Source of the DNA: Escherichia coli 042
Lineage (GTDB): Bacteria > Pseudomonadota > Gammaproteobacteria > Enterobacterales > Enterobacteriaceae
Direction: 5' to 3' (one strand)
NCBI RefSeq assembly: GCF_000027125.1
Contig: NC_017626.1
DNA length: 64,000 nt
The notes below the pieces were generated by a model that saw only the letters and a program-made list of their open reading frames with translations, was not told the DNA's origin and searched no databases. A program made the position numbers and the translations under genes. Positions 19,336 through 44,065 of the stretch are shown one piece after another (the first letter of the stretch is position 1; each line of letters opens with the position of its first letter).

Positions 19336-21057
19336 TTACAAACCCTGCTTGAACTGGTAATAACGCCCCTGTCTGGCAAGCAGTTCTGCGTGAGTACCTT
19401 GCTCAATAATTTGCCCGTTGTCCATCACTATTATTTGTTGGAAACGAGAGAGTCCGCGAAGTCGATGGGTGACCATTAACACCGTTTTCTCATGCATCAT
19501 TTCTGCAAGCAATTCAAGGATCTGACTTTCGGTTGTGGCATCTAAGCCTTCTGTAGGTTCATCCAGCAATACCAGCGGCGCATCATGTAACAGCGCACGG
19601 GCGATAGCCAGACGGCGCAGTTCACCACCGGAGAGCTGGCGTCCGCCTTCACCCAACCAACTGTTGAGACCTGCATCCTCGAGCAGCTTCTCCAGACCAA
19701 CGCGACGCAAGATCTCCGCCAGAGCCTCATCACTACTGCCAGGTGAGGCGAGTAACAGATTATCACGCAGCGTGGCGCTAAACAGATGCACTCGCTGAGG
19801 AACAACGCTGATGGTCTGTCGTAGAGCCGCTTCATTCAGGCTGGCTATGGGGCTATCGTTAAGCAAAATCTTGCCTTGTTGCGGGTCCCATGCGCGGGTC
19901 AGCAGTTGTAACAGTGTTGATTTGCCGCATCCGGTTCGCCCGAGAATCGCTATATGTTCCCCGGCGTTTACCTGAAGAGAAATCCCTTTAAGTGCCTGTT
20001 GGGATTGCTCCGGATAAGTGAATTGAACATCCCGTAACGTCAGCGAAACGCGATCGGCAACACGAGTTTGGGTATCAGGGAAGGTGACTTCCGGTTTTTG
20101 ATCCGTTAAGTCAGTGATCCGAACGGCAGAGGCAATGACTTGCCCCAGATGCTGAAATGCACCCGTTACTGGTGCCAGTGCTTCAAACGCGGCTAACGCG
20201 CAGAAGACAAACAGGGCAATTAACGCGCCGGGTTGAGCATTGCCGCCAACGCCGCCAGACGCCATCCACAGCATCAGGATCACCGCTAACGCGCCAATGA
20301 GCAGCATTATCGCTTGCGACAATGCGGTGAGTTCAGATTGACGACGTTGCGCTTCCAGCCACTGAATTTCGGTATTCTCTAACTGCGTGCGATAACGATC
20401 GCTGGCACCAAAAATGGTCAGCTCAGCTTGCCCTTGCAGCCAGGCCGTCAGTTGTTGGCGATACTGCCCGCGAAGATGAGTCAGATTTTGCCCGGTGCTT
20501 TTTCCCGCACGATAAAACAGTGGTGGCATAAGGAAAAGCGTCAGTAACATAATGCCGCCCAGCGTAAAGGCGAGGGTGAAATCAAGGAAACTTAACCCGA
20601 TTGTCACCACCATAATCACCACAAAAGCGCCCACCAGCGGCGAGATAACGCGCAGGTAAAGATGATCGAGCGTATCAACATCCGCCACCACGCGGTTGAG
20701 CAATTCGCCCTGACGATAGCGCGCCAGTCCTGCAGGGGAGAGGGGCAGCAATTTGCTGAAGGTATAAATGCGCAGATGCTGCAACACGCGGAAAGTCGCG
20801 TCGTGACTTACCAGACGTTCAAAATAGCGCCCGGCAGTACGGGTGATTGCTGCACCACGCACGCCCGCAGCGGGTAGCATATAGTTGAAGCTGTACAGTC
20901 CGGCAACCCCCGCTACCGCTGAGGCCGAGAGGAACCAGCCGGAAAGTGTCAACAGACCGATACTGGCGAGCAGCGTGACAATTGCCAGCACAATACCAAG
21001 ACTTAACATCCATTTATGACGTTTATACAGTGCCAGATAGGGTAGCAAAGCGCGCAT
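19336..21057 (-). CDS. cydC: Cysteine/glutathione ABC exporter subunit CydC (needed for cytochrome bd assembly)
   Basis: 573 aa; N-terminal TMD plus C-terminal ABC ATPase (Walker A GRTGCGKST, signature LSGGELRRLAIARA). Confidence 0.93.
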   Translation of the reverse strand: MRALLPYLALYKRHKWMLSLGIVLAIVTLLASIGLLTLSGWFLSASAVAGVAGLYSFNYMLPAAGVRGAAITRTAGRYFERLVSHDATFRVLQHLRIYTFSKLLPLSPAGLARYRQGELLNRVVADVDTLDHLYLRVISPLVGAFVVIMVVTIGLSFLDFTLAFTLGGIMLLTLFLMPPLFYRAGKSTGQNLTHLRGQYRQQLTAWLQGQAELTIFGASDRYRTQLENTEIQWLEAQRRQSELTALSQAIMLLIGALAVILMLWMASGGVGGNAQPGALIALFVFCALAAFEALAPVTGAFQHLGQVIASAVRITDLTDQKPEVTFPDTQTRVADRVSLTLRDVQFTYPEQSQQALKGISLQVNAGEHIAILGRTGCGKSTLLQLLTRAWDPQQGKILLNDSPIASLNEAALRQTISVVPQRVHLFSATLRDNLLLASPGSSDEALAEILRRVGLEKLLEDAGLNSWLGEGGRQLSGGELRRLAIARALLHDAPLVLLDEPTEGLDATTESQILELLAEMMHEKTVLMVTHRLRGLSRFQQIIVMDNGQIIEQGTHAELLARQGRYYQFKQGL

Positions 21058-24457: not shown

Positions 24458-24952
24458 ATGGTAGATAGCAAGAAGCGCCCTGGCAAAGATCTCGACCGTA
24501 TCGATCGTAACATTCTTAATGAGTTGCAAAAGGATGGGCGTATTTCTAACGTCGAGCTTTCTAAACGTGTGGGACTTTCCCCAACGCCGTGCCTTGAGCG
24601 TGTGCGTCGGCTGGAAAGACAAGGGTTTATTCAGGGCTATACGGCGCTGCTGAACCCCCATTATCTGGATGCATCACTTCTGGTATTCGTTGAGATTACT
24701 CTGAATCGTGGCGCACCGGATGTGTTTGAACAATTCAATACCGCTGTACAAAAACTTGAAGAAATTCAGGAGTGTCATTTAGTATCCGGTGATTTCGACT
24801 ACCTGTTGAAAACACGCGTGCCGGATATGTCAGCTTACCGTAAGTTGCTGGGGGAAACCCTGCTGCGTCTGCCTGGCGTCAATGACACACGGACATACGT
24901 TGTTATGGAAGAAGTCAAGCAGAGTAATCGTCTGGTTATTAAGACGCGCTAA
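24458..24952 (+). CDS. lrp: Leucine-responsive regulatory protein (AsnC/Lrp family global regulator)
   Basis: Start refined to MVDSKKRPGKDLDRIDRNILNELQKDGRISNVELSKRVGLSPTPCLERVRRLERQGFIQGY... (164 aa). Confidence 0.96.
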   Translation: MVDSKKRPGKDLDRIDRNILNELQKDGRISNVELSKRVGLSPTPCLERVRRLERQGFIQGYTALLNPHYLDASLLVFVEITLNRGAPDVFEQFNTAVQKLEEIQECHLVSGDFDYLLKTRVPDMSAYRKLLGETLLRLPGVNDTRTYVVMEEVKQSNRLVIKTR

Positions 24953-24990
24953 CACGGAACAGGTGCAAAATCGGCGTATTTTGATTACAC

Positions 24991-25010
24991 TCCTGTTAAT
25001 CCATACAGCA
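24991..25010 (+). promoter_or_regulatory. LexA (SOS) box upstream of ftsK
   Basis: tcCTGTtaatccatACAGca fits CTGT-N8-ACAG about 80 bp upstream of the ftsK start; ftsK is known to have an SOS-inducible (dinH) promoter. Confidence 0.6.
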
Positions 25011-25086
25011 ACAGTACTGGGGTAACCTGGTACTGTTGTCCGTTTTAGCATCGGGCAGGAAAAGCCTGTAACCTGGAGAGCCTTTC

Positions 25087-28000
25087 TTGAGCCAGGAATA
25101 CACTGAAGACAAAGAAGTCACATTGACAAAGTTAAGTAGCGGCCGCCGCCTTCTGGAGGCGTTGCTGATCCTTATTGTCCTGTTTGCCGTCTGGTTGATG
25201 GCTGCCTTACTAAGCTTTAACCCTTCGGACCCCAGCTGGTCGCAAACGGCCTGGCATGAACCTATCCATAATTTAGGTGGGATGCCCGGTGCGTGGCTGG
25301 CAGATACGCTGTTCTTTATTTTTGGCGTGATGGCTTACACCATTCCCGTCATTATTGTCGGCGGTTGTTGGTTTGCCTGGCGTCATCAGTCCAGCGACGA
25401 ATACATTGATTATTTTGCCGTTTCGCTACGCATCATTGGCGTTTTGGCGCTCATCCTTACCTCCTGTGGTCTGGCGGCAATCAACGCTGACGATATCTGG
25501 TATTTTGCCTCCGGTGGCGTCATTGGCAGCTTACTAAGCACTACGCTACAACCACTGCTACACAGTAGCGGGGGAACTATTGCGCTGCTCTGCGTTTGGG
25601 CAGCGGGCCTGACGCTGTTCACCGGTTGGTCATGGGTGACCATTGCTGAAAAACTCGGCGGCTGGATTTTAAATATTCTTACCTTCGCCAGTAATCGTAC
25701 CCGTCGCGATGATACCTGGGTCGATGAAGATGAGTATGAAGATGACGAAGAGTATGAAGATGAAAATCACGGCAAACAGCATGAATCACGCCGTGCTCGT
25801 ATTCTTCGCGGCGCGCTAGCGCGTCGTAAACGGTTGGCGGAAAAATTCATTAATCCGATGGGGCGGCAAACAGACGCTGCGTTGTTCTCCGGTAAGCGGA
25901 TGGATGATGACGAAGAGATTACCTACACTGCACGCGGTGTGGCTGCCGACCCTGACGACGTCCTCTTTTCGGGCAATCGTGCAACGCAGCCAGAATATGA
26001 CGAGTACGATCCATTATTAAACGGTGCGCCAATTACCGAACCTGTTGCTGTAGCAGCTGCTGCTACCACGGCGACGCAAAGCTGGGCTGCACCGGTTGAA
26101 CCTGTGACTCAGACGCCATCTGTTGCCTCTGTTGATGTTGCACCTGCACAACCTACAGTAGCCTGGCAGCCTGTACCGGGGCCACAAACGGGAGAGCCGG
26201 TGATTGCTCCTGCACCGGAAGGTTACCCACAGCAGCCACAATATGCGCAGCCTGCAGTGCAATATAATGAGCCGCTGCAACAACCTGTACAGCCACAGCA
26301 GCCGTATTATGCGCCTGCGGCGGAACAACCTGTTCAGCAACCGTATTACGCAACTGCGCCGGAACAGTCTGCGCAACAGTCGTATTACGCCCCTGCGCCA
26401 GAACAATCGGTGGCAGGTAACGCCTGGCAAGCCGAAGAGCAGCAATCCACTTTTGCTCCACAGTCTACATACCAGACTGAGCAAACTTATCAGCAGCCAG
26501 TCGCTCAGGAGCCGTTGTACCAACAGCCGCAACCTGTTGAACAGCAGCCTGTTGTGGAGCCTGAACCCGTTGTAGAAGAGACAAAACCCGCGCGTCCGCC
26601 GCTTTACTACTTTGAAGAAGTGGAAGAGAAGCGAGCCCGTGAACGTGAACAACTTGCGGCCTGGTATCAACCGATTCCAGAACCGGTTAAAGAACCAGAA
26701 CCGATCAAATCTTCGCTGAAAGCACCTTCTGTTGCAGCAGTACCTCCAGTAGAAGCCGCTGCCGCTGTTTCTCCGCTGGCATCTGGCGTGAAAAAAGCGA
26801 CACTGGCGACGGGGGCTGCCGCAACCGTTGCCGCGCCAGTCTTCAGTCTGGCAAATAGCGGTGGACCGCGTCCGCAGGTCAAAGAGGGGATTGGCCCGCA
26901 GTTGCCACGACCGAAACGTATCCGCGTGCCAACTCGTCGTGAATTGGCGTCTTACGGTATTAAGCTGCCCTCACAGCGTGCGGCGGAAGAAAAAGCCCGT
27001 GAAGCCCAGCGCAATCAGTACGATTCTGGCGATCAGTACAACGATGATGAAATCGATGCGATGCAGCAGGATGAACTGGCACGTCAGTTCGCCCAGACAC
27101 AGCAGCAACGCTATGGCGAACAGTATCAACATGATGTGCCCGTAAACGCAGAAGATGCAGATGCTGCGGCAGAGGCTGAACTGGCTCGTCAGTTTGCGCA
27201 AACTCAACAACAACGTTATTCCGGCGAACAACCGGCTGGGGCGAATCCGTTCTCGCTGGATGATTTTGAATTTTCGCCAATGAAAGCGTTGCTGGATGAT
27301 GGTCCACACGAACCGTTGTTTACGCCAATTGTTGAACCTGTACAGCAGCCGCAACAACCGGTTGCACCGCAGCAGCAGTATCAGCAGCCACAACAGCCGG
27401 TTGCGCCACAGCAGCAATATCAGCAGCCGCAACAGCCGGTTGCGCCGCAGCAGCAGTATCAGCAGCCACAACAGCAGGTTGCGCCGCAGCCACAATATCA
27501 GCAGCCGCAACAACCGGTTGCGCCACAGCAGCAATATCAGCAGCCGCAACAGCCGGTTGCGCCGCAGCAGCAGTATCAACAGCTGCAACAACCGGTTGCA
27601 CCGCAGCCGCAGTATCAGCAGCCACAACAGCCAGTTGCGCCACAGCCGCAGGATACCCTGCTTCATCCGCTGTTGATGCGCAATGGTGACAGCCGTCCGT
27701 TGCATAAACCGACGACGCCGCTGCCTTCTCTGGATTTGCTGACGCCGCCGCCGAGCGAAGTGGAGCCGGTAGATACCTTTGCGCTTGAACAAATGGCGCG
27801 CCTGGTGGAAGCGCGTCTGGCTGATTTCCGTATTAAAGCCGATGTCGTCAATTATTCTCCGGGGCCGGTTATCACTCGCTTTGAATTGAACCTGGCACCG
27901 GGCGTAAAAGCGGCGCGTATTTCTAACTTGTCACGTGACCTTGCCCGTTCACTTTCGACGGTGGCGGTGCGTGTCGTTGAAGTTATTCCTGGCAAACCCT

Positions 28001-29193
28001 ATGTAGGTCTGGAGTTACCGAATAAAAAACGACAAACCGTATATCTGCGCGAAGTTTTGGATAACGCCAAATTCCGCGATAATCCGTCGCCATTAACCGT
28101 GGTACTGGGTAAAGATATCGCCGGTGAGCCGGTGGTTGCCGATCTGGCGAAAATGCCGCACTTGTTGGTTGCGGGGACTACCGGTTCCGGTAAGTCTGTC
28201 GGTGTGAACGCGATGATCCTGAGCATGCTTTATAAAGCACAGCCAGAAGATGTGCGTTTCATCATGATCGACCCGAAAATGCTGGAGCTTTCGGTTTATG
28301 AAGGCATTCCGCATCTGTTAACGGAAGTCGTTACCGACATGAAAGATGCTGCCAACGCTTTGCGCTGGTGCGTAAATGAAATGGAACGTCGTTATAAGCT
28401 GATGTCCGCCCTAGGTGTGCGTAATCTGGCGGGTTATAACGAAAAAATTGCTGAAGCCGATCGCATGATGCGTCCGATTCCAGACCCGTACTGGAAGCCG
28501 GGTGACAGTATGGACGCCCAGCATCCGGTGCTGAAAAAAGAACCATACATTGTGGTTTTGGTGGACGAATTTGCCGACCTGATGATGACCGTAGGTAAAA
28601 AAGTGGAAGAGCTGATAGCACGTCTGGCGCAAAAAGCCCGTGCCGCGGGTATCCACCTCGTACTGGCAACTCAGCGTCCATCGGTTGATGTTATTACTGG
28701 TCTGATTAAAGCGAATATTCCGACCCGTATCGCCTTTACCGTATCCAGTAAGATTGACTCACGTACCATTCTTGATCAGGCTGGTGCGGAATCACTGCTG
28801 GGTATGGGGGATATGCTCTACTCTGGGCCGAACTCCACGTTGCCGGTACGTGTCCATGGTGCTTTTGTTCGCGATCAGGAAGTTCATGCCGTGGTGCAGG
28901 ACTGGAAAGCGCGTGGTCGCCCACAGTATGTTGATGGCATCACCTCCGACAGCGAAAGCGAAGGTGGCGCGGGCGGTTTCGATGGCGCTGAAGAGCTGGA
29001 TCCGTTGTTCGATCAGGCGGTGCAGTTTGTCACTGAAAAACGCAAAGCATCAATTTCTGGCGTACAGCGTCAGTTCCGCATTGGTTATAACCGTGCAGCG
29101 CGTATTATCGAACAGATGGAAGCGCAGGGGATTGTCAGCGAACAGGGGCACAACGGTAATCGTGAAGTGCTGGCCCCACCGCCGTTTGACTAA
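25087..29193 (+). CDS. ftsK: DNA translocase FtsK (N-terminal membrane domain, Pro/Gln-rich linker, C-terminal RecA-like motor with gamma domain)
   Basis: 1368-aa [54 protein letters not shown]...; Walker A GTTGSGKS in the motor; long PQQ-repeat linker. Confidence 0.96.
27343..27650 (+). repeat. Tandem 39-bp in-frame repeats in the ftsK linker (about 8 units encoding [13 protein letters not shown])
   Basis: Near-identical units cagcagccgcaacagccggttgcgccgcagcagcagtat repeated head-to-tail; it also generates spurious reverse-strand ORFs. Confidence 0.9.
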
Positions 29194-41782: not shown

Positions 41783-44065
41783 TTACATAGATTGAGTGAA
41801 GGTACGAGTAATAACATCCTGCTGCTGTTCTTTAGTCAGCGAGTTGAAACGTACTGCGTAGCCAGATACACGGATGGTCAGCTGCGGATATTTTTCCGGG
41901 TTTTCCATCGCGTCGAGCAGCATTTCACGGTTCATCACGTTAACGTTCAGGTGCTGACCACCTTCGATGGACGCTTCGTGGTGGAAGTAACCATCCATCA
42001 GACCAGCCAGGTTGGTCTTACGAACTTCGTCGTCTTTACCCAGTGCGTTCGGAACGATAGAGAAGGTGTAGGAGATACCATCTTTAGCGTAAGCAAACGG
42101 CAGTTTAGCAACGGAAGTCAGAGAGGCTACTGCACCTTTCTGGTCACGACCGTGCATCGGGTTAGCACCCGGTCCGAACGGCGCGCCAGCACGACGACCG
42201 TCTGGGGTGTTACCAGTTTTCTTACCATACACAACGTTAGAAGTGATGGTCAGAACAGACTGAGTCGGGATAGCGTCACGGTAGGTGTGCAGTTTCTGAA
42301 TTTTCTTCATGAAACGTTCTACCAGGTCAACAGCCAGGTCATCTACACGCGGATCGTTGTTACCAAACTGCGGGTATTCGCCTTCGATTTCGAAGTCGAT
42401 AGCCAGACCGTCTTCGTCACGAATCGGTTTAACTTTCGCATATTTGATTGCAGACAGGGAGTCAGCAGCAACGGACAGACCAGCGATACCACACGCCATG
42501 GTGCGGATAACGTCACGGTCGTGCAGCGCCATCAGAGAGGCTTCGTAGCTGTACTTGTCGTGCATGTAGTGGATGATGTTCAGTGCAGTGATGTACTGTT
42601 TAGCCAGCCAGTCCATGAAGTGATCCATGCGCTCCATCACTTCATCGTAGTTCAGGAGATCGCCTTTGATCGGCTCAGACTTCGGACCAACCTGCATTTT
42701 CAGTTTTTCGTCAACGCCACCGTTGATTGCGTACAGCATGGTTTTCGCCAGGTTTGCACGCGCACCGAAGAACTGCATTTGTTTACCAACGATCATCGGG
42801 CTTACGCAGCAAGCGATAGCGTAGTCATCGTTGTTGAAGTCCGGACGCATCAGGTCATCGTTCTCATACTGCAGAGAAGAGGTGTCGATGGACACTTTAG
42901 CGGCGAATTTCTTGAAGTTCAGCGGCAGTTTTTCAGACCACAGAATGGTCATGTTCGGTTCCGGAGACGGACCCATGGTGTACAGGGTGTTCAGGAAACG
43001 GAAGCTGTTTTTGGTAACCAGGGTACGACCGTCGAGGCCCATACCACCGATAGATTCGGTTGCCCAGATCGGGTCGCCAGAGAACAGTTCATCGTATTCC
43101 GGAGTACGCAGGAAGCGAACCATACGCAGTTTCATGACCAGGTGGTCAACCATTTCCTGCGCTTCTTGTTCGGTGATCTTGCCAGCTTTCAGGTCACGTT
43201 CGATGTACACATCCAGGAAGGTGGAGGTACGACCGAAGGACATTGCAGCACCGTTCTGAGACTTAACAGCAGCCAGGTAGCCAAAGTAAGTCCACTGGAT
43301 AGCTTCCTGAGCGTTGGTAGCCGGACCAGAGATGTCGTAGCCGTATTTCGCAGCCATTTCTTTCATCTGACCCAGAGCGCGGTGCTGTTCAGCGATTTCT
43401 TCGCGCAGACGGATAGTCTGTTCCAGGTTTACGCCGTTTTCCAGATCAGCCTGCAGAGAGGTGAACTGTGCAAGTTTGTCTTTCATCAGGTAGTCGATAC
43501 CGTACAGCGCAACGCGACGGTAGTCACCGATGATACGACCACGGCCATAAGCATCTGGCAGACCGGTCAGAACACCGGATTTACGGCAACGCAGGATGTC
43601 CGGAGTGTAAACGTCGAACACGCCCTGGTTGTGAGTTTTACGGTATTCAGTGAAGATTTTTTTGATCATCGGGTCCAGTTCGCGGTTGTACGCTTTGCAG
43701 GAACCTTCGATCATTTTGATACCACCGAACGGGATAAGAGCACGTTTCAGCGGAGCTTCAGTCTGCAGACCAACAACTTTTTCCAACGCTTTGTTGATGT
43801 AGCCAGCGTCGTGAGAGGTGATGGTGGAAGCAACAGCGGTGTCAAAGTCAACTGGCGCGTGAGTGCGGTTTTCCAGTTTAACGCCTTCCATTACTTTGTC
43901 CCACAGGGTGGTGGTCGCTTCAGTAGCGCCAGCCAGGAAGGACTCGTCACCCTCGTACGGAGTGTAGTTTTTCTGAATGAAGTCACGGACGTTTACTTCA
44001 TTCTGCCAGTCACCTTTGGTAAAACCTTCCCAGGCTGTGGCTAACTTTTCATTAAGCTCGGACAT
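41783..44065 (-). CDS. pflB: Pyruvate formate-lyase (glycyl-radical enzyme)
   Basis: 760 aa [44 protein letters not shown]...; C-terminal glycyl-radical motif RVSGYAVRF. Confidence 0.97.

Follow-up and report, generated by a model that had tools for sequence, protein, structure and literature searches.

A palindrome in the short gap between lrp and ftsK raises the question of whether it is the LexA operator through which the SOS response reaches ftsK and, if so, how it is built into the promoter and what it says about the annotated start of the gene. The analysed DNA, referred to here as the window, is a stretch of 64,000 nucleotides (64 kb) of Escherichia coli 042 and was identified as the E. 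coli trxB-lrp-ftsK region; its positions are converted to NC_000913.3 by adding 908137. The upstream gene, lrp, occupies 24458-24952 on the plus strand (stop codon 24950-24952) according to the ORF list and to RefSeq for an identical strain and MG1655. The downstream gene, ftsK, has a TTG start and 1368 codons for amino acids and occupies 25087-29193 on the same strand, as supported by the ORF list, RefSeq (strain 118UI and MG1655), and 75 of 80 loci compared. The lrp stop at 24952 and the first in-frame TTG of the long ORF at 25087 leave a gap of 134 bp, and both boundaries agree with those in RefSeq for strain 118UI and K-12 MG1655.

A stretch of about 1 kb around the box, for which RefSeq gives the names lrp and then ftsK, matched many E. 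coli chromosomes at 100%, and its identity was 99% or higher in 5,425 of the 5,426 complete genomes. The 134-bp spacer reached at least 99% identity in the same number of E. coli genomes (5,425 of 5,426) and was 100% identical in all but one of twelve sampled matches, a K-12 derivative among them. Gene order and start codon are shared with K-12, and the regulatory region is without differences. Strain 042 and K-12 differ downstream only, where FtsK has 1368 aa versus 1329 aa, corresponding to three 13-aa linker repeat units. The FtsK linker is encoded in the window at 27343-27651 by 7.9 copies of a 39-bp tandem repeat (13 aa, PQ-rich).

The LexA box in the lrp-ftsK spacer

The 20-mer at 24991-25010 reads tcCTGTtaatccatACAGca, with CTGT at 24993-24996, an 8-nt spacer, and ACAG at 25005-25008; the 16-bp palindromic core CTGT-N8-ACAG (CTG-N10-CAG) is matched exactly at 24993-25008. 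The first-pass annotation, made from the sequence, had noted this fit inside the 134-bp gap, and its sequence and coordinates were exact. The bare core has no significance by itself in a shuffle test of the 64-kb window, as it occurred once against 0.64 expected and at least once in 48 of 100 shuffles. A symmetrised LexA weight matrix was derived from the 17 other sites of Table 4 in PMC3009722, with ftsK omitted. Under this matrix, the ftsK box scored 16.3 bits and was the top-scoring 20-mer of the window, with an exact p of 1.1e-6 per position, which corresponds to 0.07 expected sites per 64 kb and 1.3e-4 within the 134-bp gap; 4% of Markov-simulated windows attained the score. Among the 18 published E. 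coli LexA sites (leave-one-out scores of 7-28 bits), it ranked 15th, above the dinG, dinB, and polB sites. Its published heterology index (HI) is 9.2, a value towards the weak end among classical SOS genes but below the customary cut-off of about 15. Scoring with a LexA matrix, which had been proposed as a check, therefore gave a weak box within the range of real sites. As about five chance sites per genome are expected at this score, the score does not carry the case for function, which is built on position, conservation, and published experiments.

Two runner-up LexA-like 20-mers were found in the window, TACTGTTTAGCCAGCCAGTC at 42594-42613 (14.4 bits) and TTCTGTAGGTTCATCCAGCA at 19549-19568 (14.3 bits). 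Both lie inside long ORFs, chance alone would give about 0.2 such sites per 64 kb, and they gave no functional sign.

The element has been described in K-12. Table 4 of PMC3009722, a UV tiling-array study that used ftsK among the UV-induced genes for motif discovery, prints the ftsK LexA motif as ACTCCTGTTAATCCATACAGCAACA, which is identical base for base to 24989-25013 of the window. PMC6590174 includes ftsK among the genes with a known SOS box. Two ftsK promoters are described in PMC4080785, a dispensable one inside lrp and an essential one, the SOS promoter dinH, which was reported to be essential for normal division. PMC4080785 and the Reg-Seq supplement attribute the dinH/ftsK SOS promoter to Lewis et al. 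1992/1994, Wang and Lutkenhaus 1998, and Dorazi and Dewar 2000, and LexA binding at the box is asserted second-hand, in reviews and through the 'high-evidence' label of Reg-Seq. The K-12 dinH/ftsK promoter and its box are the same element as that in the window, since the spacer is 100% identical to that of K-12 derivatives and the printed motif and the printed Term-seq flank agree with the window at every base.

The LexA operator (SOS box) TCCTGTTAATCCATACAGCA was thus placed at 24991-25010, without strand, on the evidence of its sequence, the matrix, the printed motif, the Reg-Seq footprint, conservation, and the published HI and LexA-dependent induction. We put at about 95% the probability that this operator belongs to dinH, the SOS-inducible promoter that is the principal one for ftsK in E. 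coli. The primary LexA-binding papers for the site are reportedly Lewis et al. 1992/1994, Dorazi and Dewar 2000, and Wade et al. 2005. The ftsK LexA operator is already known as part of the dinH/ftsK SOS promoter and is an ordinary element, a textbook SOS box that serves promoter-dissection work as a gold standard; as a discovery it is minor. Its value lies in calibration, as a weak but real operator was recognisable from sequence alone, while the bare CTGT-N8-ACAG was insufficient as evidence and position, matrix score, conservation, and experiment were all required.

Promoter anatomy and repressor footprint

The start of the dinH/ftsK transcript was taken from Cappable-seq, which reports a TSS at U00096.2 932358 (+) (RRS 14.5, enrichment 3.7), corresponding to the A at window position 24998. 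Cappable-seq coordinates refer to U00096.2 and were shifted by +777 to NC_000913.3. This shift was tested on the TSS of lrp, which we take to lie 267 nt upstream of the lrp ATG; the predicted position, 931551, carried a TSS exactly there (RRS 95). An older mapped value used in Reg-Seq (933138) corresponds to 25001. The two values are 3 nt apart and the Reg-Seq numbering is possibly 1 off, which leaves the picture unaffected: the box overlaps the core promoter and spans -7 to +13 from the Cappable-seq TSS or -10 to +9 from the Reg-Seq TSS.

With the TSS at 24998, TACACT at 24986-24991 (+) becomes the putative -10 hexamer (-12 to -7), ending 7 nt before the TSS, and GTGCAA at 24963-24968 (+) becomes the putative -35 hexamer (-35 to -30), 17 nt before TACACT. 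TACACT and the LexA 20-mer share one base, the last of the hexamer and the first of the box. The recognition triplets fall at -5 to -3 (CTG, 24993-24995) and +9 to +11 (CAG, 25006-25008). Conservation follows these elements. The GGTGCAAAA block was at least 90% conserved across Enterobacterales spacers, TACACTCCTG was unchanged in all box-bearing spacers except for one TATACT variant, and GGTGCAAAA and TACACT were co-conserved with the box, while the intervening sequence drifts. A generic sigma-70 consensus promoter scan of 24700-25300 called no promoter because the hexamers match the consensus at 3/6 and 4/6 positions, below the thresholds of the scan.

Reg-Seq chose ftsK/LexA as a high-evidence gold standard, a gene 'known to be regulated by LexA'. 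Mutagenesis in that study gave a repressor footprint at -8 to +4, i.e., window 24993-25005, and mutations in the box raised expression. The per-base values were repressor-like from -8 to +5, and positive, RNAP-like information was found at -38 to -35 (window 24963-24966, within 1 nt) and at -16 to -11, coinciding with GTGC and TACACT. According to a 2025 Reg-Seq study, the ftsK repressor footprint was present in glucose medium and reportedly gone with hydrogen peroxide (H2O2). The published motif, the footprint at 24993-25005, and the TSS at 24998 all coincide with the box. Comparison with the mapped operator thus bore out the first-pass annotation, which had held the box to be consistent with the SOS-inducible dinH promoter of ftsK; the same motif is the one printed in PMC3009722.

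The repressor character of the site, its TSS, and its LexA dependence rest on data, published sets included. From the geometry, the conservation, and the Reg-Seq signs, we infer which hexamers form the promoter and that LexA represses it by steric occlusion. The promoter would be of a weak sigma-70 type, with -35 GTGCAA, a 17-nt spacer, -10 TACACT, and the start at A 24998. A LexA dimer on -7 to +13 would overlap the end of the -10 hexamer, the discriminator, the TSS, and the first transcribed bases, and would compete with RNA polymerase; this placement fits promoter occlusion.

A second plus-strand Cappable-seq TSS lies inside the lrp ORF (U00096.2 932153, window 24793, RRS 11.8). Upstream of it, TTGAAG (24756-24761) and TAGTAT (24780-24785) were found by eye with an 18-nt spacer. 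It is probably the dispensable ftsK P1 promoter described in the literature as lying 'within lrp'.

Conservation and strength of SOS control

The box was compared across 80 loci of Enterobacterales collected with an Lrp scan. It was found at a fixed position, 35-52 nt past the lrp stop, in 77 of them, spanning four to five families of the order. These 77 loci carried 20 sequence variants of the box, with scores between 12.2 and 20.8 bits. None of them altered CTG or CAG; CTGG, the form seen in ruvA and cho, sometimes took the place of CTGT, and the centre remained A/T-rich. The boxes of Serratia, Hafnia/Edwardsiella, and Photorhabdus/Xenorhabdus outscored that of E. coli. The box was absent after lrp in the three Providencia loci, and the Moellerella locus had a distorted box with a CTG-N12-CAG remnant. 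In this Providencia/Moellerella group of Morganellaceae, the best box scored 6-8 bits or was reduced to that remnant, the lrp-ftsK spacer was 400-900 bp long, and ftsK had an ATG start. A strong box was kept in Proteus, Morganella, Photorhabdus, and Xenorhabdus.

In published RNA-seq data, ftsK was up 1.5-fold with AZT (P = 2e-10) and 1.7-fold lower in lexA3 (P = 8e-17). With ciprofloxacin, its log2 fold change was 0.58-0.94 and then fell, and activation of the FtsK protein was not in step with the mRNA. LexA control of ftsK is real but shallow, in keeping with a weak box placed over a promoter that has to run in normal growth. The poor consensus match (HI 9.2; 16 bits versus 20-28 bits for strong boxes) points to partial repression. 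On the best-supported model, a classical one, the dinH promoter feeds ftsK in normal growth, and after DNA damage, RecA-stimulated self-cleavage of LexA empties the site, relieves the partial repression, and raises expression by only about 1.5-2-fold. FtsK translocase resolves chromosome dimers at the septum, and the element ties DNA damage to a modest rise of this enzyme.

The arrangement is the one known from strong SOS operators placed over -10/+1 (sulA, umuDC, and recN), with which the ftsK box shares CTGT-N8-ACAG over core promoter elements, the logic of repression by occlusion, and derepression through RecA/LexA. It differs from them in strength (16 versus 20-28 bits; HI of 9.2 versus 2.1-5.4), in induction (about 1.5-fold versus 19-56-fold), and in controlling a promoter obliged to stay on in normal growth. 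The closer likeness is to the weak-box SOS genes (uvrD, dinG, dinB, polB, and ydjM), whose matrix and HI range and modest induction are similar; unlike theirs, the ftsK box follows closely on the stop of an unrelated gene, lrp, and is itself adjoined by a conserved RNA hairpin.

The shallow response allows another reading, in which the palindrome can be bound by LexA but is kept mainly by its overlap with the essential ftsK housekeeping promoter (end of the -10 hexamer, discriminator, and TSS) and the hairpin base, LexA control being physiologically marginal. Several results lean this way. Per-position conservation correlated positively but not significantly with LexA information content (rho of 0.35-0.42, p of about 0.11-0.13), and box positions 1, 2, 9, 10, 14, and 15, where LexA information is low, were as invariant as CTG and CAG. 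Since these positions are frozen, some of the conservation is owed to the promoter and TSS that the box overlaps and not to LexA; the -10 hexamer, the discriminator, and the TSS presumably hold them, and the correlation falls short of significance because the box overlaps other constrained elements. The reported need for dinH in normal division, the induction of only 1.5-1.7-fold, and the protein activation out of step with the mRNA point in the same direction. However, the positions that do vary stay within bases compatible with LexA (CTGT to CTGG, the A/T-rich centre), and the better boxes of several genera (19-21 bits) point to selection on LexA affinity. Box mutations raised expression in Reg-Seq, the footprint was reported lost on SOS induction, and the lexA3 dependence is highly significant. 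We regard marginal LexA control as very improbable.

Less probable still is a different promoter, with TTGATT at 24981-24986 as -35, TACAGC at 25004-25009 as -10, and a start near 25016 in the left arm of the hairpin, so that LexA would sit between the hexamers and the transcript would escape the hairpin. TTGATT matches the consensus at 4/6 positions and stands 17 nt from TACAGC, and a start inside the stem would bypass a terminator. This promoter was rejected on the TSS, Reg-Seq, and conservation: among the Cappable-seq sites listed, the TSS is at 24998 and none lies near 25016; Reg-Seq gave no RNAP-like signal at -20 to -15 or +3 to +8; and in Pectobacteriaceae and Morganellaceae, TTCAGC or TTAGGT stands in place of TTGATT, with GTGCAA and TACACT unchanged. 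A chance palindrome without function has a negligible probability, for although the core is expected 0.64 times per window and the matrix gives about five chance hits per genome, chance is refuted by the constancy of the position and of CTG/CAG over four to five families of Enterobacterales, the mutational repressor footprint, the LexA-dependent expression, and the 1.3e-4 sites expected in the gap.

Pairing of the two half-sites in RNA was also rejected as the cause of the palindrome, as transcription from dinH begins only past the left half, and the change from CTGT to CTGG is uncompensated.

The adjoining hairpin and the ftsK leader

The right half of the operator runs into a conserved RNA hairpin of 14 bp with a GUAA loop at 25008-25039 (+), which was identified from folding, covariation, and a Term-seq 3' end. 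Its stem opens with G25008, the base on which the ACAG half-site ends, and closes with U25039; it occupies +11 to +42 of the dinH transcript and begins 56 nt after the lrp stop. The predicted fold has a free energy of -21.9 kcal/mol (z = -4.75). Among 39 distinct sequences, compensatory double changes were found in 8 of 8 core pairs and 98.7% of the cells were paired; none of 500 shuffles attained this covariation score, and slid registers dropped to 33-64% paired. Providencia and Moellerella also keep the hairpin after lrp. The structure is real and under selection.

A Term-seq RNA 3' end at 933176 corresponds to window 25039, the last base of the hairpin, and was present in two conditions. 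Its Rho score of 1.03 indicates that it is not Rho-dependent, its intrinsic-terminator score is 1.70 against a threshold of 3.0, and coverage scarcely falls across it (475 upstream versus 419 downstream). A short U-tract, UUUU at 25043-25046 (+), follows 3 nt past the hairpin and would form a weak terminator tail; it occurs in most Enterobacteriaceae and some Morganellaceae and is missing in Cedecea, Buttiauxella, Pectobacterium, and Serratia. Of the features of an intrinsic terminator, 25008-25039 has the stable G+C-containing stem-loop, while in place of an uninterrupted U-tract with 3' ends inside it there are four U and a 3' end at the stem base. A consensus terminator scan of 24700-25300 did not call the hairpin because its tail has too few U, and returned one irrelevant minus-strand terminator-like match inside ftsK. 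An Rfam search of the region found no family covering the hairpin and returned a sub-threshold chance match to a Dictyostelium snoRNA.

Most simply, this is the 3'-end hairpin of the lrp mRNA, though it fails the tests of an efficient intrinsic terminator. As the dinH transcript starts at 24998, the hairpin also comes first among the structures of the ftsK leader. A further role for the 3' end at 25039 appears unlikely; it might mark a 42-nt SOS-inducible RNA (24998-25039), or an attenuation or stability checkpoint on dinH transcripts and on lrp read-through reaching ftsK. If true, such a role would bring in a further layer, at the level of RNA, where the promoter is considered completely understood, and the hairpin is the sole part of the locus that might repay more work.

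Another strong Term-seq 3' end lies in the lrp 5' UTR at MG1655 932430 (window 24293), 165 nt upstream of the lrp start. Its intrinsic-terminator score is 7.4, which points to a short RNA within the long lrp leader or to transcription ending prematurely there.

The annotated ftsK start is sound, and the LexA box adds little to that. The first-pass annotation had seen the box as a useful check of the start codon; what holds of this is that the TSS at 24998 bounds the 5' end of the mRNA, while the box itself is silent on where translation begins. The start is supported instead by that TSS together with the leader and coding sequence. Following a stop, the first start codon in frame is TTG 25087, which is also the RefSeq start, and a Shine-Dalgarno GGAG lies 8 nt upstream of it at 25075-25078 (+), within a conserved block, CCTGGAGAG, that is nearly invariant upstream of the ftsK start across the order. 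The TTG, the SQEYTEDK N-terminus, and the Shine-Dalgarno sequence were conserved in 75 of the 80 Enterobacterales loci. The base-level map of hexamers, TSS, box, hairpin, 3' end, ribosome-binding site, and TTG confirms the ftsK start annotation.

Two minor features were observed in the ftsK leader. A lineage-specific insertion of about 15 bp, GGCAGGAAAAGCCTG at 25055-25069, forms a small second hairpin; Escherichia, Citrobacter, Salmonella, Enterobacter, Klebsiella, and Raoultella carry it, and most other genera lack it. Folding of the leader also predicts that CCUGG at 25072-25076 pairs with CCAGG at 25092-25096, around the Shine-Dalgarno sequence and the start codon, and this pairing may limit translation or may coincide with coding constraints.
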